Shown piece after piece: positions 10,416 through 59,106 of a DNA stretch of 64,000 bases. The notes beneath the pieces were generated by a model that worked only from the letters and a program-made list of their open reading frames with translations, searched no databases and was not told the DNA's origin. Origin of the DNA: a virus (lineage: Duplodnaviria; Caudoviricetes); IMG/VR virus record IMGVR_UViG_3300027776_000009. The stretch is one strand, 5' to 3'. How positions within the stretch are numbered: position 1 is the first letter of the stretch; each line of letters begins with the position of its first letter. The position numbers and the translations under genes were made by a program.

Positions 10416-12806
10416 TTATTGCGGGTAAATGAGTTGACTCAGGCTGACGGTGAAGTCTTGAGCCTGATCAATGGCGTTGGTCATGCTGCGTACATCGTTT
10501 AGCAGTTTGGCACCGCCTTCCGATATTTCTACCAAGGTGTTGAGCAACTTGGTGACACGCTCATAAAAAAGCGCTGTATCCCTCGCGTCTACTGAAGAGA
10601 CGGGCGTTGTCTCCAGATGTTCCAGTAGCGTCTTGAATTGGGGGAGAGTAGCGATCAAGAGCTGCTTTGCTTCTGCGGCCGTGGTCAAGTAGGTTGCAAT
10701 CGGATCTCTGGCGTGACTCAGTCCCCGATAGGAAGCGGAGTTACTTACCTCAGCGTTATCATGCGTGTATCGAGCGCTTTTGACCAACTTATAAATACGA
10801 CTAGGATACGGACCGCCTCCCGCTTCACCGATATCAGTCAGGTCCAGATTATCGGGAGTCGCCAAGGGGTTGGCTTGAGTGCAGATGTATCGAAACTGAT
10901 CTGTCATCCGTTGCACACTGGAGTCTTTATCTTGATAACAGGCAACGCTACCTGCTTCGGCTACAGTCACTGCAGCATTCATCAAACGAGGAAGAGCTTC
11001 GACCAGCGTGTTACTAATGCGGGTCATGATTCCTAATCGCAAAATGGAAGACTCTGTGTTGAACACCATATCGGTTAGTGATGAGCCTTGCTTGAGTTGT
11101 TGGAGCTCAACCGCGTTAAGATAATCGCCTGTGGTGTAGAAATACGCGGCCAGGTTTTCGGAGGAACTCAGAATCGCTTCGATCTCAGAACCGGGAACCT
11201 CTAAACGTTCCAATTCTTTACGACAAGTCGACAGAATAAGATGAGGTTGAGAGGCTGCTGCCGGAGACACGGTCTCCAACATTTTTCGACCGGAGGCTGG
11301 GATCTGCTGCCGTGCTTCGGCTTCACGCTGAATAAGGCGAGAGAGGGCTTCTTGTGCAAGGCTCCCGGACCCTCCTTGCTCACTACGATGGGTTTGACCA
11401 ATGCGTGTCAACACGCTGATCAGATGATCAACAGCGAGTGCGTCGGGTTGAACAGGAAGCATCTTATCCTCCTCCATCGAAGCATACATGGCCGACACCG
11501 CAAACGCGCGATTAGCACCCAGCTCATTCAAGGTGCGCTGAAGGGCAACTTGTCCGTTGTACTTGCGGATACTGGGCTTGATCTGAGCAATCCATTTCAA
11601 CAGATTCGGGTAGGCTCTGGCGCCCGCGAGCATTCGATCAATGTATTCAATATCGCGCAGCGTTTTCCGACGCATCTCTATCGAGATTTTCGGTTCGCGT
11701 AGTCTCAGATACATCTCTCGTCGGATGAGCATCAATCGATCGATCGGGGGGTCGTAACGACTCTGATCGGGTTTTTCTGTAAGAAGACTCCAAAGAACCA
11801 GCATGGGAATCCCGATAACAGACATAGTGCACAGGGCTGCACCAACGACAGTCTTCAATACTTCCGAGGTCAAATACTCACGGTCCTTACCAAGATCTGC
11901 GGCACCATAGAAAGCAGATATCATAGCCGCCCCGCCGCCGTGGCGAACCATGAATTGATCAGCGATTTGCTCAGCAACGCGTTCATCGTAAAGATCCATC
12001 CCAAGTTCTGAAGTGATGCTGCGGCGGGCTTCCGTCAGCATCACCACTTGGTAATTAACCCCCTCAGCGCCAGGTTCTGATTTGGCTAACGATGCGACAT
12101 CAAGTTTTGTATCCCCCAAATCAACCGCATATTTGAGGACCTGCGTGCGTTCGTTGTAGTTATCAATGTTAGCCGCGGTTCGTGCAATTTGTGACAGCAT
12201 CAATGACCGTCTGACAACATACGCCATATAGACCATAGCGGTGTACAGATGACCAAGTTCGTGAAGAATGGTATCCGCTATGACTTCCTCTGCACTGTAC
12301 TCAGATGTCGGCCGCTTTGTTAGAAGACCTATCGTTATCAGGAATGGGAATTCCAGTCGACTGTAGAGCCCACTAACCTTAGATTTCCCCAGATCAATAC
12401 CTGCGGTAAACTCCTCCTTGTAATCCCGGACAATGTTCCCTAAGGCGGCTTGATCATAGAAGTCATACCCTTCATCTTTTTTCGGATCCAGGGTCTTGCT
12501 TAAGATATTGTTTTTACCCAGCCAGACAAAGGACACCGCGGCATTAGGGATCAAGTTATTCTCAATACCGAACTTGACCAGGATTCCGGTCTCGTCCAGA
12601 ATGAACTTCGACAGAGGGCTTTTCTCAAAGGCTTGATCCGTAAACTCACCCTTGGTAAGAAGTTGCCCGATAATCTTTACAAGCCCATCACGGAACGAGC
12701 CGTCCTGAAACGCGATAGTCTCCATCGAGGGAGTCAGCTCTCGGGGGAGGAGCTGCGTAAGGGAGTGCCGCATGAGGGATTCTCCGAATAAAGGGGTGTT
12801 AAGCAC
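10416..12806 (-). CDS. Head protein (phiKZ gp84-like) with zincin HExxH motif
   Basis: SMETIAFQ cleavage site, LHELGH, EQIADQF, hydrophobic segment, internal SME. Confidence 0.65.
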   Translation of the reverse strand: MLNTPLFGESLMRHSLTQLLPRELTPSMETIAFQDGSFRDGLVKIIGQLLTKGEFTDQAFEKSPLSKFILDETGILVKFGIENNLIPNAAVSFVWLGKNNILSKTLDPKKDEGYDFYDQAALGNIVRDYKEEFTAGIDLGKSKVSGLYSRLEFPFLITIGLLTKRPTSEYSAEEVIADTILHELGHLYTAMVYMAYVVRRSLMLSQIARTAANIDNYNERTQVLKYAVDLGDTKLDVASLAKSEPGAEGVNYQVVMLTEARRSITSELGMDLYDERVAEQIADQFMVRHGGGAAMISAFYGAADLGKDREYLTSEVLKTVVGAALCTMSVIGIPMLVLWSLLTEKPDQSRYDPPIDRLMLIRREMYLRLREPKISIEMRRKTLRDIEYIDRMLAGARAYPNLLKWIAQIKPSIRKYNGQVALQRTLNELGANRAFAVSAMYASMEEDKMLPVQPDALAVDHLISVLTRIGQTHRSEQGGSGSLAQEALSRLIQREAEARQQIPASGRKMLETVSPAAASQPHLILSTCRKELERLEVPGSEIEAILSSSENLAAYFYTTGDYLNAVELQQLKQGSSLTDMVFNTESSILRLGIMTRISNTLVEALPRLMNAAVTVAEAGSVACYQDKDSSVQRMTDQFRYICTQANPLATPDNLDLTDIGEAGGGPYPSRIYKLVKSARYTHDNAEVSNSASYRGLSHARDPIATYLTTAAEAKQLLIATLPQFKTLLEHLETTPVSSVDARDTALFYERVTKLLNTLVEISEGGAKLLNDVRSMTNAIDQAQDFTVSLSQLIYPQ

Positions 12807-39788: not shown

Positions 39789-41630
39789 TTAACGACGTCC
39801 CCAGGTGTCACGACGTCCGCTGACGGAGCTGGTATCGCGCTGGCGGCCGGTGTACAGGCTACCGAGGCGACGAGAATCCACGGCGTAATCTGCCATAGCG
39901 CCGGCACGACGACGACCAGAAGTGGCCATGTCTTGCGGCATGTCCGTCCAGGTGATGGCGTGCTCAGTGCGCTGGAAGGCTTCCTCCAGACCGACGATCA
40001 GGGCTTCGTCGAAGGTGTAGCGACGAGCGTAACCCTTGAAGACGATGTCCGGACGAACAGCCAGTTGCAGCTCTTCACGACGCGCCACGCGCAGTGCCAG
40101 ATCCGAGTTGGTCGACCAGGTCGCATCGAAATCTTCGACAGCCGCCATATCGTCGGCGCCGCAGATGTTCAGGAACGCCAGATAATTCAGGCGACGGATG
40201 TCGACGCGCTGACCTTCGCGATTGGTCATATAGCCCAGGCTGATACGCTCGAAGCGCTCACGGATCAGCGGACCCCCGTTGTAGCACTCGCTGAACGCGC
40301 CATCGGTCAGGAAGTCTGCGGCGTCAATGATGACTTGTTCAGCCTTCGTGTTCCGCTTGGCGGCGGCTTCGAAGACACCGGTCAGCATGGACAGCGGACC
40401 AATTTCATCGATATCGATCGAGAAGATCGGATCGCGGCGGATGGCAAACTCCACCATGTCGGAGAAATCCTTCATGGAGAAGCTGTTGGACGTGAAGTCC
40501 GGAACCCGCTTGGGAACATCGTCGTTGTTGGTCAAGCCCGGGCAATCGAAACCGATCGCTGAGAGATCGCGCAGGTTGTCCTGCGCGGCCACACGAGGAC
40601 GATACGCCATCGGCCAGACGTTACCCTTGGCCAAGGCCACCATGCCGTGAATACCCAACAGGATCATGCCAACAGACGGCATGCCCAGACGGGTTTCCAC
40701 ATTGGTCATGATGATTTCCGGAGTCTCGCACTGAGTCTCTTGGATTTCACCACGTCCTGCGGGGCGAGCCGGTTCGTAGATCAGGTTCATCATGGTGTCA
40801 ACCAGGACGATATCACGCTGACCTGTGACACCCATGCCGCGCTGACCATCGTTGGGAGAGGCACCCGAGATCAGAACACTGATGTCGGAAGCAATCGGGA
40901 GGCCGGCAGGGGTTTCGGGTTGCGACGGGGAGATGTTGAAGCGGCCCAGCAAACGATCGTTGGTTTGCAGTTCGCGCACCGAGAACATTTCCTGCGGTTG
41001 ACCAGCCACGCGATCGGCCACGGCTTTGATGGCGATAGCGGCGAAATACATCAGGACCTTGATCTGCTCCTTGTCGTCCGGGGACATTTCGCGACTGATG
41101 ATGTTTTGACCGGCTTCGTACACGTTACTGACCAAGTGCTGGCCGGCGGTGATGTCGTGCACGCGATTCCAATACCAGTCGTCGTACACATCGCTGGTCA
41201 CCAGACGGATCTCGACGCTGCGGCCGTTGATGGTTTCGGTACGCGGGAGCAGTTCGCCGTCGATGGAGTTTTCCACCAGCAGCGTGTGGACCACGGCGCT
41301 GTTGCTGCCGTCCTTTTCAGTGGTCTCGGCAGAAACCAAGATGGCCGAGCAGGCGGCACCGCTGGAGTTCTTGTCCAGCACTGTGAAGCGGTACTGCCCA
41401 ACTTTGTCGCCACAGGCTTCCTTGAGGGCGGTCACGATCTTGGTGATGCCTTCGCCGGCACCGCGGCGATCAAAGGGGGTCGCCATGCGTTCGGACAGGC
41501 CGGTGAATCCGCCGGGAGCGCGACGCGATTCGCTGGGGTTGTCTTGACGGCCGGCGCTGTTGTCCAGATCTTCGGTTTGGGTTTGCGGTGCAGCAGCGCG
41601 ACTGCCGCGATTTCCACGAGTGGCACTCAT
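39789..41630 (-). CDS. chmA: Chimallin, phage nucleus shell protein (phiKZ gp54-like)
   Basis: ~613 aa, immediately upstream of nvRNAP beta'; disordered termini; LRDLSAIG, ISLGY, GYARRYTF; strong codon bias, own terminator. Confidence 0.85.
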   Translation of the reverse strand: MSATRGNRGSRAAAPQTQTEDLDNSAGRQDNPSESRRAPGGFTGLSERMATPFDRRGAGEGITKIVTALKEACGDKVGQYRFTVLDKNSSGAACSAILVSAETTEKDGSNSAVVHTLLVENSIDGELLPRTETINGRSVEIRLVTSDVYDDWYWNRVHDITAGQHLVSNVYEAGQNIISREMSPDDKEQIKVLMYFAAIAIKAVADRVAGQPQEMFSVRELQTNDRLLGRFNISPSQPETPAGLPIASDISVLISGASPNDGQRGMGVTGQRDIVLVDTMMNLIYEPARPAGRGEIQETQCETPEIIMTNVETRLGMPSVGMILLGIHGMVALAKGNVWPMAYRPRVAAQDNLRDLSAIGFDCPGLTNNDDVPKRVPDFTSNSFSMKDFSDMVEFAIRRDPIFSIDIDEIGPLSMLTGVFEAAAKRNTKAEQVIIDAADFLTDGAFSECYNGGPLIRERFERISLGYMTNREGQRVDIRRLNYLAFLNICGADDMAAVEDFDATWSTNSDLALRVARREELQLAVRPDIVFKGYARRYTFDEALIVGLEEAFQRTEHAITWTDMPQDMATSGRRRAGAMADYAVDSRRLGSLYTGRQRDTSSVSGRRDTWGRR

Positions 41631-41680
41631 GTTTTTCTCTCCGGTTATGAATGATGACACGTCATGATCATGTCACTAAA

Positions 41681-50655: not shown

Positions 50656-52062
50656 ATGAGCAACAAACTGTTCTATCGCCTGGGTCTTGAAGACCTGGTC
50701 GAAGACGCTCCGGCTGACGAGCCGGAGTCACTGGAAGAAATCGCTGGCGAATCCTCTCCTGAATCTGACGTCCTGGCCGCTGAAGAGCAAGGTGAAGAAG
50801 TCGAAGGCGACGCTGACGATGTTGAAGCGATTGATGCCGACACTGAAACCATGGGTGAAGTGGTGAAGGGTCTGGAAGCTGCGCTGAAGAGCGGTAAGCC
50901 TACCAAGGACGCGATAGTCTTCTCCAACATGGCGATCAACGCCGTGAATCGGAAGTGGTTCGGTGGCACAACCTTGACCGTTTCTACTGAGTCCATCAAC
51001 TCTCCTGAAGATGCGGTTGTCGCTTCGATGGAAGGCGCTCTGGACAAGATCAAGGAACTGGGTCGTGCACTGATCGAGAAGCTCAAGAAGCTGTGGAATA
51101 CCTTCTCCGGTTGGATCAAGTCCGTCTTCGATGGTTCCGCCAAGCTGACAGCCCGCGCCAACGCCCTCGCTAAGAAGGCTGATGAAATGGCCGGTAAAGC
51201 CGCCGGTACAGTTGACTTCAAGGAATCCAACACAGGTTTGCTGGAAACCCTTGAAATCAACGGCAAGCTGAACAAGGCCACTGTTGTGGCTGGTACCGCA
51301 AGCGTGGCCAGTCTGATGGCCGCATTGGGTTCCAGCGCTCTTATTGCTGCCGATATGGGAGCGATCGGTGACAAGGTTTTCAAGGCCACTGACATTGATG
51401 CTGCCAACAGTGCCGCCGGTGAAGGCGTTAAGCAGTTGAACACTGCATACGAAAACGTCCTGAAACCGCTGGATGGCATGGTGGTCATCACCAATCCTTC
51501 CCGGGCCCCTGAGAGTGCCACTGTGGCTCGCGGCAAGAAGATTCTTCCCGGCAACAACGGCCTGTACATTATCATACCTTCTGGCGAAACCCCGAAAGAT
51601 CTGGGTGAAGCCTCCAGAATGTTTGGCAAGTACAAGTTCACCATCATGGATCTGTTGAGCGGCGCTGATCGCAAGCTGGAAGGCGAAGCCATTGCTCCGA
51701 AAGACGTCAAGGTTTTGGCAACTGCTGCTGCCGGCATCTTCGAGAAGATCGGTAGCTACAAGAAGGCTTACGCACAGCGTGAGCATCTGCGTGGCCTCGT
51801 GATCAAGCAACTGGAAAGCTCTGCTAAAGAAGCGACCGGTAATAACGAAGGTGACAAAGCGCGTATCGCTCAGGAACGCAGCAACTTTGCTCGTGCCTTC
51901 GGTACTGCTTGGTCTGCACTGGTGTCTGCTGACTACATGGTTGTCAACTATGTTCAGAAGACTGCCAAGGCCTATCTGGCATATGGCGACCTCTGTCTGA
52001 AGGCAGCCGGTGGCGGTGAGAAAGCCGAAGAGCCGAAGAAGGAAGAGCCGGCAGCTGCCTAA
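50656..52062 (+). CDS. Internal head/ejection protein, paralog of 214..1644
   Basis: First ~165 aa nearly identical, C-terminal ~100 aa similar, middle divergent. Confidence 0.85.
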   Translation: MSNKLFYRLGLEDLVEDAPADEPESLEEIAGESSPESDVLAAEEQGEEVEGDADDVEAIDADTETMGEVVKGLEAALKSGKPTKDAIVFSNMAINAVNRKWFGGTTLTVSTESINSPEDAVVASMEGALDKIKELGRALIEKLKKLWNTFSGWIKSVFDGSAKLTARANALAKKADEMAGKAAGTVDFKESNTGLLETLEINGKLNKATVVAGTASVASLMAALGSSALIAADMGAIGDKVFKATDIDAANSAAGEGVKQLNTAYENVLKPLDGMVVITNPSRAPESATVARGKKILPGNNGLYIIIPSGETPKDLGEASRMFGKYKFTIMDLLSGADRKLEGEAIAPKDVKVLATAAAGIFEKIGSYKKAYAQREHLRGLVIKQLESSAKEATGNNEGDKARIAQERSNFARAFGTAWSALVSADYMVVNYVQKTAKAYLAYGDLCLKAAGGGEKAEEPKKEEPAAA

Positions 52063-52075
52063 GCCTAACTTCATC

Positions 52076-52155
52076 CGTTTGCTGTAAACAACGCGGGAGA
52101 GTCATGACTCCCGCATTCAAAATCTCCGTGGAGTAACACCATGAGCAACAAACTG
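52076..52155. repeat. Inverted copy of 117..197
   Basis: 80 nt identical bar a one-base indel. Confidence 0.9.
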
Positions 52156-52338
52156 TTCTATCGCCTGGGTTTGGAGGAGTTGTCTGAAATCGCTCCGGTT
52201 ACCGAGGTTCCGACTAACTCTGCACAGCAAACAGAACTGGAGCTCAATCAACTGGGGAACGAGCTACATGGTGACGTGCAGTTGGTATTGAGTAACGATT
52301 ACTGGAAGCATCAGCATCTGGTTAACGCAGGCGGTTAA
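52141..52338 (+). pseudogene. Truncated head-protein paralog (leader/propeptide only) or small packaged peptide
   Basis: MSNKLFYRLGLEEL then stops at 65 aa. Confidence 0.55.
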
Positions 52339-52350
52339 CATTTATAACAG

Positions 52351-52388
52351 CATATAACCCCAGGGAGAGATCCCTGGGATTTATGTCG
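52351..52388. terminator. CATA/TATG-flanked hairpin between convergent genes
   Basis: CCCAGGGA-gaga-TCCCTGGG. Confidence 0.65.
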
Positions 52389-52780: not shown

Positions 52781-53275
52781 TTATCGTTTGTTATACCGAC
52801 TGATACGGATAACTCCATGATTGGGATCATCCAAACACTCGACGGTTTCACGATCCCAGCCTTCTCCAGTAAACGTTGGGAAGAACGCGTCCCCATCTTT
52901 CACGATCTCCGGGACATGGGTCATGTACACTGTATCAGCAAACGGAAGCGCTTCCTTGTAGATCTCCCCACCTCCGATGATAAACACCGTGCCATCAGCA
53001 GGCAGATGGGGTTCGGCTTCCAGCAGGGCTTGTGTCAGCGTTGTGACGTAGCAGTAACCTGCGCCAGGCTCGCGCGGTGTGCGTGAGATAATGATGTTGT
53101 AACGACCGGGTAGAGGTTTGCCGATTGAGTCAAACGTTTTGCGTCCCATGATCACGGGGTGACGGAGCGTGCTTTCTTTGAAGAAACGCAAATCTCCGGG
53201 AATACGCCACGGTAGTTGACCTTGGCGACCAATACAGCCATTCATACTCATGGCAACAATCAGAGCAATGTTCAC
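52781..53275 (-). CDS. folA: Dihydrofolate reductase
   Basis: IGRQGQLPWRIPGDLRFFK, IMGRKTFDSI, LPGR, IIGGGEIY, GDAFFP. Confidence 0.97.
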   Translation of the reverse strand: MNIALIVAMSMNGCIGRQGQLPWRIPGDLRFFKESTLRHPVIMGRKTFDSIGKPLPGRYNIIISRTPREPGAGYCYVTTLTQALLEAEPHLPADGTVFIIGGGEIYKEALPFADTVYMTHVPEIVKDGDAFFPTFTGEGWDRETVECLDDPNHGVIRISRYNKR

Positions 53276-53860: not shown

Positions 53861-53897
53861 ACATAAGTCCTCCCATGAGTGGGAGGGCAATTATGTC
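53861..53897 (-). terminator. CATA/TATG-flanked hairpin
   Basis: GTCCTCCCA-tgag-TGGGAGGGC. Confidence 0.6.
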
Positions 53898-55055
53898 TTA
53901 CCACTTAGCGCTGGGGGGGAGTATGTCTTCTTGGGACACACTGGGTTGTTGAGTGCCGGCTATCACTTTATCAATAGCTGACCGCATTTCATCGGTAAAC
54001 GTGAAATGGTAAGCGTTAGGAGCCTCTCCTTTCCAAGTCTTCTTTACCGCGTTGTCCTCAGGATGGTTAATCGCGCCATCTATCGATGATCCAAAGGCTA
54101 ACACGGTGACAGTCTTCGGCGCAAAGCGTAGCCGGTCAGTACCTCGACTATGCCCTATCCAGATGTCGGCTGTTTTTGGCAGCGTATAGGGCTCACCCGG
54201 ATCAAAGGATACTTCGCAACCCGCTGACTCCAGATACCTGCGAATTGACTCATAGAACGCCTTAGCCGTCGGGTTTCCTCGAATATACTTCGGATTCCCT
54301 TGGATGATGACAGCAGTGAGGGTCTTATCCGTGCGGTCTTCTTTACTAGCGGTCAGCTTATCGTAGTGTTTCTGGATAAGCAGTTTGGCAGTATCTAGTT
54401 TCTTTTTGTCTGACGTGGTCAAGTTCTTGCCAGCGCGATTGATGTAAAACTGGAGCCGAGCGATCGCCTGTCGTTTATCCTTAGACGCCTTAATCAATCC
54501 ATTGGCAATACTGCTAGCGGATTTCTTAAAGAAGTCTTCAGGAGGATGCCATTTCTCTTTCTTAGTGACATCGTCGGACCACTTCTTACCTTCCATAGAG
54601 GGAGTTGTTGCCAACTCAATTCCCTTGGTGTTTAAGAAGTCAGCTACCTGAGCAAGGTTATCCAGCACTATAGCTCCGTTACGCTTAAGCATTTCAGCAA
54701 CTGCGTCAAGTGACCGACGTTCCCCCGTTGTCCAAGTTGTGCCCAATTCACTATCGAGCAAAGTGAATAGTGTCTGATTGGGTCTACGGTGACTATCGTC
54801 CACAACCTCAGCAATGGAGTAAACTCCTGTCATGAGCGGTGAGATGACATAGAGAGTATAGTCTGAAGATTCACGGACCTGTCGTTCGATAACTTGGTCT
54901 TCCGGTTTCCAGTCAGGCACGACTGGGTCAAACCACCCAACAGATACGATCAGTTCTTTCTTCAACCGATCCCGCCACTGACTGTTGTTACATGTACCAC
55001 CCAGAAAGACTTTCACCGATGAGGAGCTATAGTCCTCAGAAAACGTACCCGGCAT
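53898..55055 (-). CDS. Three-domain protein: nucleoside 2-deoxyribosyltransferase-like + DUF3175-like + alpha/beta-hydrolase-like
   Basis: KVFLGGTCN..W..FDPVV..GVYSIAE; FYINRAGKNL; GHSRG; GAGGTG RBS before MPGT. Confidence 0.7.
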   Translation of the reverse strand: MPGTFSEDYSSSSVKVFLGGTCNNSQWRDRLKKELIVSVGWFDPVVPDWKPEDQVIERQVRESSDYTLYVISPLMTGVYSIAEVVDDSHRRPNQTLFTLLDSELGTTWTTGERRSLDAVAEMLKRNGAIVLDNLAQVADFLNTKGIELATTPSMEGKKWSDDVTKKEKWHPPEDFFKKSASSIANGLIKASKDKRQAIARLQFYINRAGKNLTTSDKKKLDTAKLLIQKHYDKLTASKEDRTDKTLTAVIIQGNPKYIRGNPTAKAFYESIRRYLESAGCEVSFDPGEPYTLPKTADIWIGHSRGTDRLRFAPKTVTVLAFGSSIDGAINHPEDNAVKKTWKGEAPNAYHFTFTDEMRSAIDKVIAGTQQPSVSQEDILPPSAKW

Positions 55056-55112
55056 GTTACACCTCAGGTAAAGCAAAAAAAAAGAAGGGGATCATAAGAT
55101 CCCCCGTTCTAG

Positions 55113-55628: not shown

Positions 55629-55665
55629 TTTGTCCTCCTACGGACAGTTGATTAGATTCACTTAG

Positions 55666-55679
55666 GTAGTATGTATCTG
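55666..55679 (-). promoter_or_regulatory. Putative early promoter
   Basis: TTTTTTTTCAGATACATACTAC. Confidence 0.65.
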
Positions 55680-56170: not shown

Positions 56171-56518
56171 TCAGACGACTTCTTTCCCTTCAACCCCACG
56201 CGCCATCCGGCGTGCGGTGCGGACTTCCAGATTCACCAATGCATTCTTCATGTCCGCAATCGCCCGCTTGTTTTCATCACAGGGGAACTGGGAATCCAGG
56301 TGCTCGGTGCGATGAATCAAAATCGCCAACAGCGCTTCATTGGTAACACCGTTCAGTCCATGAGCGGGAATCGGACCTTGCTGAAAACTGATGGTGGTAC
56401 CCGATTGACCATGCATCACTTTGTAAACATGTCCCGTCATATCGCGACCCGCGGCACGTTCATCGGGACCGGAAAAAGCATTGACCATCAACCCGTTGTG
56501 GTCGGTATAAATACGCAT
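56171..56518 (-). CDS. tad1: Tad1-family anti-Thoeris/anti-CBASS signal sponge
   Basis: H.Y, ISFQQG, NGVTNEALLAILIHR, FPCDENKRA, RMARGVEG follow the Tad1 pattern (FQKG, HGV..DLL, RENA.A, R.ER.V.G). Confidence 0.8.
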   Translation of the reverse strand: MRIYTDHNGLMVNAFSGPDERAAGRDMTGHVYKVMHGQSGTTISFQQGPIPAHGLNGVTNEALLAILIHRTEHLDSQFPCDENKRAIADMKNALVNLEVRTARRMARGVEGKEVV

Positions 56519-56578
56519 GTGAAACTCTCCTAAGTGGGGACTCAGATGTCCATACCCATGGTGTATATCTGTAAAATA

Positions 56579-56854
56579 TTATTCTTGGAATAGCGTTTTG
56601 AATTGAATATCGCTCATTACTACCGGTCGATTACTCGATAAGTACACGACCCAGTCCCCCGGATAGACGAACAATGGCTTGGGGGTTCTTTCAATAACGG
56701 CATAAGCGCCGTGTCTCAGTTCCATCTGCTGGCGTTGACTTAAACGCGTTAAACCACGGAGCTGTGCTGGGTGTGTCACAACTCCGGGTAAGGTTATCCC
56801 CGTCTTCCATTGCAAACCTAAGGACTGTCGTGTCGCTTTAGGGTCTACTGACAT
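56579..56854 (-). CDS. Small protein with QW..PGDWVV..F motif (PGDYG/Acb4-like?)
   Basis: LQWK...FVYPGDWVVY...DIQFKTLF; AGGAG RBS. Confidence 0.45.
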   Translation of the reverse strand: MSVDPKATRQSLGLQWKTGITLPGVVTHPAQLRGLTRLSQRQQMELRHGAYAVIERTPKPLFVYPGDWVVYLSSNRPVVMSDIQFKTLFQE

Positions 56855-57110: not shown

Positions 57111-57245
57111 GGTAACTCCTAAGTACGTGTAAGACGAAATGTCTCATAACTAATACCGTGTGTGTAAAAAATAAGCGCATAACCCCCATATGGCCGAGGG
57201 GGTCTTCGGCCAGAGGTTAGCTCAAAGGGTTATACCGTCATGGAT

Positions 57246-57746
57246 TCAGGGAATCGCGGGTTCCGGCGTCAACGCCGACACGTTCACGGAATCAATCACG
57301 TTGTCCGGCGTGGTATACACCTGACCGCCAGTTTCAGCAAGGGCTTCATGGAGCTCTTTCAGGTCCTGATGTTCCGCATCCGAAAGCGGTTCTTCCCCAC
57401 CCGGCACATCCCCCATCACGAGGATACCCGTAGACTCCGGATTACGCACTGCTTCCGCAGCAGCCGCTACAGCTCCAGCATACCCCGTTACTCGTGGCTG
57501 CACCACAAACAGATTCAACACGGCTTCGGTTTCCCGATGCTGGTCTTCCTGCATGGTTTCAGCACTCACCCGCACTCCCATGGGTTCAACTCGCACCATC
57601 GGCATCACGCCAGCGGTCAGCGTGTCACACAGAGATTCCAGACCCACTCCGTAAACACGTACCAGCCGCAGAGGCTTCGCCCCATGACTGCGCTTTGCGC
57701 TGGCCGGTGCTTGACCAGCCAAGATTTCGTTCAGACTGTGACGCAT
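57246..57746 (-). CDS. Degenerate NDT-like paralog, probably virion-associated
   Basis: Aligns by eye to N-domain of 53898..55055; GLE/SAE sites; GGAG RBS. Confidence 0.55.
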   Translation of the reverse strand: MRHSLNEILAGQAPASAKRSHGAKPLRLVRVYGVGLESLCDTLTAGVMPMVRVEPMGVRVSAETMQEDQHRETEAVLNLFVVQPRVTGYAGAVAAAAEAVRNPESTGILVMGDVPGGEEPLSDAEHQDLKELHEALAETGGQVYTTPDNVIDSVNVSALTPEPAIP

Positions 57747-58969: not shown

Positions 58970-59106
58970 GAGGATTCTCCGTAAGAGTTGGTATGTAAAA
59001 TTTTACAGCTTTCCCTAGTCATATGCGCTAGAGTACCGCATTTTTTTTTTGCAGTCTCCCAAAACGAATCAGGATCGATTCGTTAGCGCAATGGGGGTAA
59101 GGGGGT

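Follow-up and report, generated by a model that had tools for sequence, protein, structure and literature searches.

A three-module protein with a prohead protease-type C-terminal tail, a candidate capsid-loaded effector of a nucleus-forming jumbo phage

The stretch of viral DNA studied here (64,000 nucleotides, IMG/VR record IMGVR_UViG_3300027776_000009, Duplodnaviria, Caudoviricetes; called the window below) carries on its minus strand, at 53898..55055, a gene for a protein of three modules with a short C-terminal tail. The modules are an NDT-like domain, a DUF3175 domain and a small hydrolase-like module, and the tail has the form seen at the C-terminus of S80 prohead proteases. Judging from the sequence, we lean towards the view that this target protein is a capsid-loaded multi-effector protein which uses a protease-type C-terminal tag. 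By its gene content the source is a very divergent nucleus-forming jumbo phage (chimallivirus), because genes for chimallin, for an internal head protein and for several beta-type subunits of RNA polymerase lie in the window; a DNA polymerase is also encoded. The chimallin (39789-41660, minus strand) is at most ~25-27% identical to the chimallins of the phage collection, which points to a chimallivirus lineage that is deep and uncultured. Megablast of the locus gave no match among known phages.

Gene layout and the three modules

The longest open reading frame (ORF), 53898..55076(-), encodes 392 amino acids (aa) from a TTG at 55076. The ATG at 55055 is the likely start, with a GAGG ribosome-binding site 8 nt upstream, and residue numbers below refer to the resulting 385-aa form. 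In the 392-aa numbering the landmarks of the first-pass annotation lie exactly where it had placed them (SME at E162, SKE at E246, SQE at E383, terminal DILPPSAKW); the three glutamates become E155, E239 and E376 in the shorter form. The features are listed in Table 1.

Table 1. Features of the target gene, of its surroundings in the window and of a tailed protein family on other contigs. A slash marks the proposed cleavage position.
Feature	Position	Strand	Remarks
Whole gene	53898..55055	(-)	385 aa plus stop, ATG at 55055
NDT-like domain (PF15891)	54621..55016	(-)	aa 14-145; GGT(C)..WR loop and SIAE Glu83 conserved
Linker 1, candidate protease site T-P-S-M-E/G	54591..54605	(-)	aa 151-155
DUF3175 domain	54357..54584	(-)	aa 158-233; predicted helical, low model confidence
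Linker 2, candidate site A-S-K-E/D	54339..54350	(-)	aa 236-239
Minimal alpha/beta-hydrolase-like module	53961..54317	(-)	aa 247-365, phrog_30942; GHSRG Ser303, Asp334, His350
Candidate tag-removal site V-S-Q-E/D	53928..53939	(-)	aa 373-376
C-terminal tail DILPPSAKW	53901..53927	(-)	aa 377-385; fits P-[PAG]-[SY]-x-[KRN]-W-COOH consensus of S80 prohead-protease tails
~237-aa family, P-x-S-x-x-W tail	L232:1504-2214	(-)	also L228, L226, L220; Goslar gp211 (L103), Eowyn gp189 (L100)
Tad1 (Thoeris anti-defence 1) homologue	56171..56518	(-)	PDB 8kbb, E 3.3e-11; same-strand cluster
Dihydrofolate reductase (DHFR)	52781..53275	(-)	two genes downstream of target
Internal head protein	50656..52062	(+)	N-terminal leader MSNKLFYRLGLE
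Terminator-like hairpin and T-run	55086..55105	(-)	upstream of gene
Second hairpin	53867-53888	both strands readable as hairpin	downstream of gene; also delimited as 53869-53886
T-rich motif sites	55640-55670, 56560-56580, 57150-57170, 58990-59005; also 19237, 34422, 37626, 45955		

The first-pass annotation had described unrelated modules strung on one chain, and this description was borne out: tblastn found each module standing alone in different, mostly jumbo, phages, and each also occurs in other combinations elsewhere. The full three-module architecture was found in only three database proteins (99, 74 and 68% identity). The pattern QE-x3-PPSA[KR]W-stop gave 0 matches in IMG/VR, hence the complete fusion is absent there. 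A WD40 identity for the whole protein, the sole match of a PDB sequence search, was rejected as spurious. Our literature searches found nothing on PF15891 or DUF3175.

The PF15891 match is partial (aa 14-63) and lies below the cut-off, with 27.0 bits against 30 (E 5.9e-6). The same domain is precomputed on the 99%-identical database protein P0002 and on 70 or more homologues, and the target retains every PF15891 column conserved at 90% or above in an alignment of 73 sequences (FLGGTC, WR, PVV.dW, E57 and SIAE). The domain is probably an active nucleotide N-glycosidase/transferase. Other fusion partners of PF15891 are NUDIX, dUTPase, dCMP deaminase, methyltransferase, GIY-YIG, metallophosphatase and RHS. 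We also observed NDT-like domains fused to a conserved GCD[YH]GVW..Y[YF]Q..P domain in Serratia phage KpGz_1 (L110:1990-3420) and Erwinia phage pEa_SNUABM_54 (L035:2456-4873), in opposite domain order; the W tail is absent from both fusions (476 and 805 aa, respectively). The DUF3175 domain (PF11373) was matched over its entire profile, positions 1-86 of 86, with 34.1 bits against a cut-off of 27 (E 3.2e-8); its standalone homologues are 93-106 aa long.

The last ~120 aa match phrog_30942. A model of this module, built from 47 sequences, has a predicted local distance difference test score (pLDDT) of 91.5 and places GHSRG between a strand (59-63) and a helix (64-72). In the same 47 sequences Ser64 and His111 are invariant and Asp95 is nearly so, in the canonical Ser-Asp-His order. 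The candidate triad Ser310/Asp341/His357 of the first-pass annotation is thus conserved: it equals Ser64/Asp95/His111 of the module and Ser303/Asp334/His350 of the 385-aa form. The modelled module accordingly has the nucleophile elbow of an alpha/beta hydrolase, G-x-S-x-G on a strand-turn-helix with the catalytic residues in the expected order. In the VIA structure search small hydrolases and cutinases ranked at the top (Z 9.0-9.2), followed by sugar-binding proteins and receiver domains (8-9), and Foldseek returned weak flavodoxin-like matches alone; 4-5 strands are predicted. From the model, the module is a probable minimal alpha/beta-hydrolase-like serine hydrolase, with membership not proven because the top structure matches do not stand clear of other three-layer folds.

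Relatives of the module are numerous. We collected 333 representatives, and in the 150 listed the module sits at any chain position of proteins from 96 to 2207 aa. Its partners include 2H-SAK/Acb1-like phosphoesterases, GNAT, SNF2 helicases, SET, ART-PolyVal, cREC, InPase and LAGLIDADG, and it is found repeatedly in single-subunit RNA polymerases that are fused to MuF, as well as in beta/beta' fusion proteins. Such partners are hallmarks of the polyvalent proteins discussed below (PMC5512222). GHSRG modules inside phage RNA polymerases were observed at L005:6270-11057, L031:4695-9695, L033:5472-7811 and L020:5007-10640; in the MuF-fused single-subunit enzymes the insertion lies directly after position ~186 of the Pfam RNA_pol profile. 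A conserved-adjacency (Rosetta-stone) argument from the standalone module genes of 201phi2-1, Viktualia and Psa21 was tried and given up, because their upstream neighbours are not DUF3175-like.

The C-terminal tail and the S80 prohead proteases

When IMG/VR was scanned for DNA encoding PPSAKW and a stop, 43 of the 45 in-frame matches fell in frames that are short or spurious. The remaining two, of 266 and 261 aa, are the only real ORFs, and both encode Peptidase_S80 head maturation proteases of the phiKZ gp175 family (E 1e-76 to 1e-83). In 80 IMG/VR S80 proteases we counted 68 distinct tails, 55 of them W-terminal, for the most part in the form P-[PAG]-[SY]-x-[KRN]-W. In 48 of these 55 a Pro stands 5-8 residues from the end, for example in VLPPSARW, ILPPSAKW, RPASARW and RPVSARW. 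Proteases of known phages end similarly (LucasX ..KRPASARW, pEa_SNUABM_37 ..LRPTALRW, KpZh_1 ..LVARW, an SPN3US-like phage ..VRSW, Goslar ..FNHW). The S80 consensus is fitted exactly by the target (ILPPSAKW) and by its orthologue P0004 (RPPSARW).

The tail is rare outside the proteases. Among 480 ORFs of phage LucasX, contig G001 (a relative described below) and the window, the strict motif was found on two proteases and the target only, and LucasX yielded no second tailed protein. The strict motif is missing from all 239 database homologues of the three modules; of 79 other viral NDT-like ORFs none carries the tail or even ends in W. All four full-length orthologues (68-99% identity) retain VSQE-x3-PPSA[KR]W behind a variable linker. 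Ser codon families differ between the tails (AGC versus TCT/TCG), therefore the conservation is at the protein level.

A relative, contig G001 (65.9 kb, estimated ~24% complete), is syntenic with the window. Both encode a phrog_3179 protein (60% identity), DHFR, NDT-like protein (43%) and Tad1 (51%). The G001 orthologue of the target is an NDT-only protein of 149 aa that lies directly upstream of DHFR and ends in ..DTKLPPSQSW, and the G001 protease ends in ..ILPPSAKW; these are the only two PPSxxW-stop ORFs of the contig. The tail stays C-terminal with or without the DUF3175 domain and the hydrolase module, as would be expected of a functional terminal tag.

A third, unrelated chimallivirus family of ~237 aa adjoins the protease gene and is tailed in 9 of 10 distinct protease/neighbour pairs. 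Examples, with the protease tail given first, are LPPSARW/EPPSARW, RPGSSAW/RPGSAYW, AGSFNHW/AGSYEW in Goslar and IGSQLW/RGSELW in Eowyn. The two tails co-vary weakly (3.6 versus 3.13 +/- 0.18 identical positions, P = 0.012).

The HK97 protease is targeted via its C-terminus. In giant phage SPN3US the protease gp245 autocleaves a 64-residue C-terminal propeptide (PMC7411985, PMC5694885; Thomas laboratory), and without its last 26 residues the protease is active yet absent from proheads (PMC7411985). The signal that packages the protease into proheads is accordingly reported to reside in this propeptide. In T4 both the protease gp21 and the ejected enzyme Alt are also C-terminally processed (PMC9026906). 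The first-pass annotation had read the tail as a removable tag for loading. Its identity with the conserved C-terminus of S80 prohead proteases, its retention on the NDT-only orthologue and the SPN3US precedent lend strong independent support to the tag; the packaging itself we infer. Capsid-targeting peptides and the protease C-terminal propeptide are already known. In the literature searched we did not find the family-wide S80 terminal motif, the motif on the neighbour family or its transfer to a multidomain enzyme.

Candidate cleavage sites and gene neighbourhood

A full-length model, itself weak (built from 4 sequences, pLDDT of 58), puts the three candidate sites of the target in inter-domain stretches of low confidence (145-171, 236-243 and 371-385). 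The sites are invariant across the 4 full-length orthologues. TPSME is conserved in all of them, S and E of ASKE are invariant with a variable stretch after SKE, and VSQE is invariant behind a variable linker.

The first site resembles sequences in homologues of virion proteins. In the window proteins (70 ORFs) S-M-E occurs 10 times against 2.1 expected, ~5-fold, and is the most over-represented [SAG]-x-E tripeptide; it is found mostly in virion-protein homologues (phiKZ gp84-like, gp89-like and internal head proteins). The target sequence TTPSME/G and the sequence LTPSME/T near the N-terminus of the phiKZ gp84-like protein (10416-12806(-)) are identical at P5-P1. The over-representation of S-M-E, mostly in virion-protein homologues, suggests that the protease of this phage prefers (A/P)-S-M-E. 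At the third site, V-S-Q-E has Val at P4, which matches the preference of gp245 (PMC10052503).

The N-terminal leader MSNKL[FM]YRLGLE was found on four window ORFs, starting at 131(-), 1644(-), 50656(+) and 52141(+). Leader ORFs include two paralogous internal head proteins of ~470 aa and a mini-ORF of 65 aa (52141-52338) that shares the leader only. The Tad1 ORF, which is 51% identical to its G001 counterpart, also matches 'gp184' of entry 8y6v. A weak NDT-like paralogue (BLASTP E 0.009, 24% identity), apparently without the SIAE Glu, was seen at 57246-57746(-), with a G001 counterpart at 10530-11012. It overlaps a plus-strand ORF of 244 aa, and either frame could be real.

A motif resembling TTTTTACA(G/C)A stands ahead of several neighbouring genes, with a weak match at the target gene. 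A T-rich TTTT(T)ACA(G/C)A(T/C)A precedes several minus-strand genes, Tad1 among them, by 30-60 nt and may define a promoter class. GC-rich hairpins at gene ends (53867-53888 and 52359-52378) are followed by (A/T)TTATGT and not by a U-tract.

Capsid loading weighed against other explanations

The tail resembles the C-terminal propeptide of the S80 proteases (phiKZ gp175, SPN3US gp245) in its P-[PA]-S-x-[KR]-W end, which follows a variable linker and an [SAG]-x-E site; this region of gp245 is needed for prohead incorporation and is removed by the protease (PMC7411985, PMC5694885). It differs in being on a non-protease cargo and in standing 9 residues past the last site, versus ~20-60 in proteases. 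The T4 capsid-targeting sequence (CTS) of IPI-III and Alt is likewise a short portable peptide: it brings unrelated proteins into the core of the prohead and is cut after Glu, and the cargo is ejected together with the DNA (PMC9026906). The T4 peptide, however, is N-terminal, whereas the putative tag of the target is C-terminal and copies the protease tail, its role in packaging being our reading; the C-terminal processing of Alt is the nearest precedent.

Polyvalent proteins, predicted by Iyer, Burroughs, Anand, de Souza and Aravind in 2017 to be delivered with the DNA (PMC5512222), also combine several unrelated conflict-type domains on one chain. The target likewise has three unrelated modules, and its hydrolase module is shared with recognised polyvalent proteins, where it accompanies ART-PolyVal, InPase, 2H-SAK, GNAT, SNF2 and MuF. 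Unlike them it is small, with three domains and no peptidase; Pfam gave no MuF or portal domain, its same-strand neighbours are DHFR, Tad1 and unknowns, and only the tail links it to the head. A terminal peptide would load it and the head protease would process it, versus an in-chain peptidase in the polyvalent proteins. The target resembles the inner body and ejection proteins of phiKZ-like phages through the candidate S/A/G-x-E sites between its modules and through the typical internal head proteins encoded nearby. Their N-terminal propeptides or leaders and their enrichment in sites are both missing from the target. What the target shares with S80 substrates is the protease-type tail, and neither the leader nor S/A/G-x-E enrichment.

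From the domains, the tail identity, its conservation in the lineage and the position and conservation of the sites, we infer the following course of binding, packaging, cleavage and ejection. The tail would most likely bind the prohead-core partner that recruits the protease, and the enzyme would be co-assembled into the head by the route of the protease. The prohead protease would then clip the tag at V-S-Q-E/D, nine residues from the end, and possibly also cut the linkers at TPSME/G and ASKE/D, freeing three modules. The products would be ejected with the DNA and, at a stage when there is as yet no phage nucleus, may act on nucleotides of the host or on nucleotide signals of its immunity. 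Tad1 nearby and the company that the module keeps elsewhere (Acb1-like, ART and GNAT) would suit a role in counter-defence or one directed at nucleotides. That all three modules are cut apart and injected seems somewhat doubtful to us. Equally tentative is the general proposal that the C-terminal P-P-S-x-[KR]-W-COOH, the targeting tail of the prohead protease itself, serves chimalliviruses as a portable tag for capsid loading which can be put on arbitrary enzymes, and that the target is a packaged polyprotein cut into three effectors which are injected before gene expression against nucleotide-based immunity.

Several observations weigh against capsid loading, and many of them would suit a soluble multidomain enzyme of the ordinary kind, made after infection and at work in the cytoplasm in nucleotide metabolism or counter-defence; its tail would have another role or be left over from recombination with the protease gene, and its S-x-E motifs would have arisen by chance. 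The first-pass annotation had taken S-x-E sites as marks of the domain boundaries; all three junctions do hold one, but the statistical premise is weak because the count equals chance (5 [SAG]-x-E against 4.6 +/- 1.9 in shuffles), and the neighbouring internal head protein has 21 against 13.7 +/- 3.0. The target lacks the N-terminal leader of the internal head proteins of this phage. Its same-strand cluster consists of DHFR, Tad1 and unknowns, with no head genes; the G001 orthologue has no S-x-E between NDT domain and tail and overlaps the start of DHFR, and this overlap suggests co-transcription with a metabolic gene. Standalone homologues of the hydrolase module, 201phi2-1 gp429 and PhiPA3 gp373, have basic tails and no virion annotation, and PF15891 is often fused to NUDIX, dUTPase, dCMP deaminase or methyltransferase without a link to the capsid. 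Tblastn found no S80 protease inside the window, the phage's own protease being outside it, and the proteases of phiKZ (..PGFMR) and 201phi2-1 (..NWLR) do not end in W. In SPN3US 13 of 14 mapped cleavages remove N-terminal propeptides, and no C-terminally tagged cargo is known (PMC10052503). A soluble enzyme sits poorly, however, with a tail that orthologues of 43-99% identity conserve as protein sequence behind a varying linker, that is kept with or without the two extra domains, that is absent from the other NDT-like ORFs and the module homologues, and that is shared with the protease of the same contig in different codons. We regard this explanation as rather unlikely.

If the tail is functional, its docking partner may be something else than the prohead core, with a chaperone, a membrane assembly site, a degradation system and the protease as candidates; the enzyme would then share the location or the regulation of head assembly and stay unpackaged. 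Its occurrence on three unrelated families would allow this, and the SPN3US truncation abolishes incorporation of the protease without identifying the binding partner. We find it improbable all the same, as prohead incorporation is the sole role linked by experiment to the C-terminal region of the protease, and as processing within the head would agree with the conserved V-S-Q-E ahead of the tail and with the SME-type site in the linker. A more plausible alternative, though still short of what we expect, is that the protein is packaged whole as one three-domain enzyme, losing its tag or nothing, with the linker sites uncut. Such delivery has precedents in the 42 head proteins that SPN3US packages uncleaved (PMC10052503) and in the N4 virion RNA polymerase and other polyvalent proteins that arrive unprocessed (PMC5512222), and a chance-level number of linker sites agrees with it. 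Against it stand TPSME and [AV]S[KQ]E, which are invariant in the orthologues despite variable or low-confidence linkers, and the fact that S-M-E is the over-represented motif of the virion-protein homologues of this phage.

How giant phages select among their ~50 head proteins for loading is poorly understood; where the protease is concerned, the C-terminal propeptide is all that has been implicated. A terminal motif of 6-8 residues common to the protease, a neighbour protein and a cargo enzyme is a concrete signal that can be mutated, and it suggests a simple tag (tail peptide ..VSQEDILPPSAKW) for loading foreign proteins into jumbo-phage capsids. The Ser-Asp-His module, a domain without a name that is widespread in virion RNA polymerases and polyvalent proteins, merits biochemical study. 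For the nucleus-forming phages, which are exposed in the minutes before their shell is built, the finding points to enzymatic counter-defence that may be packaged in advance.

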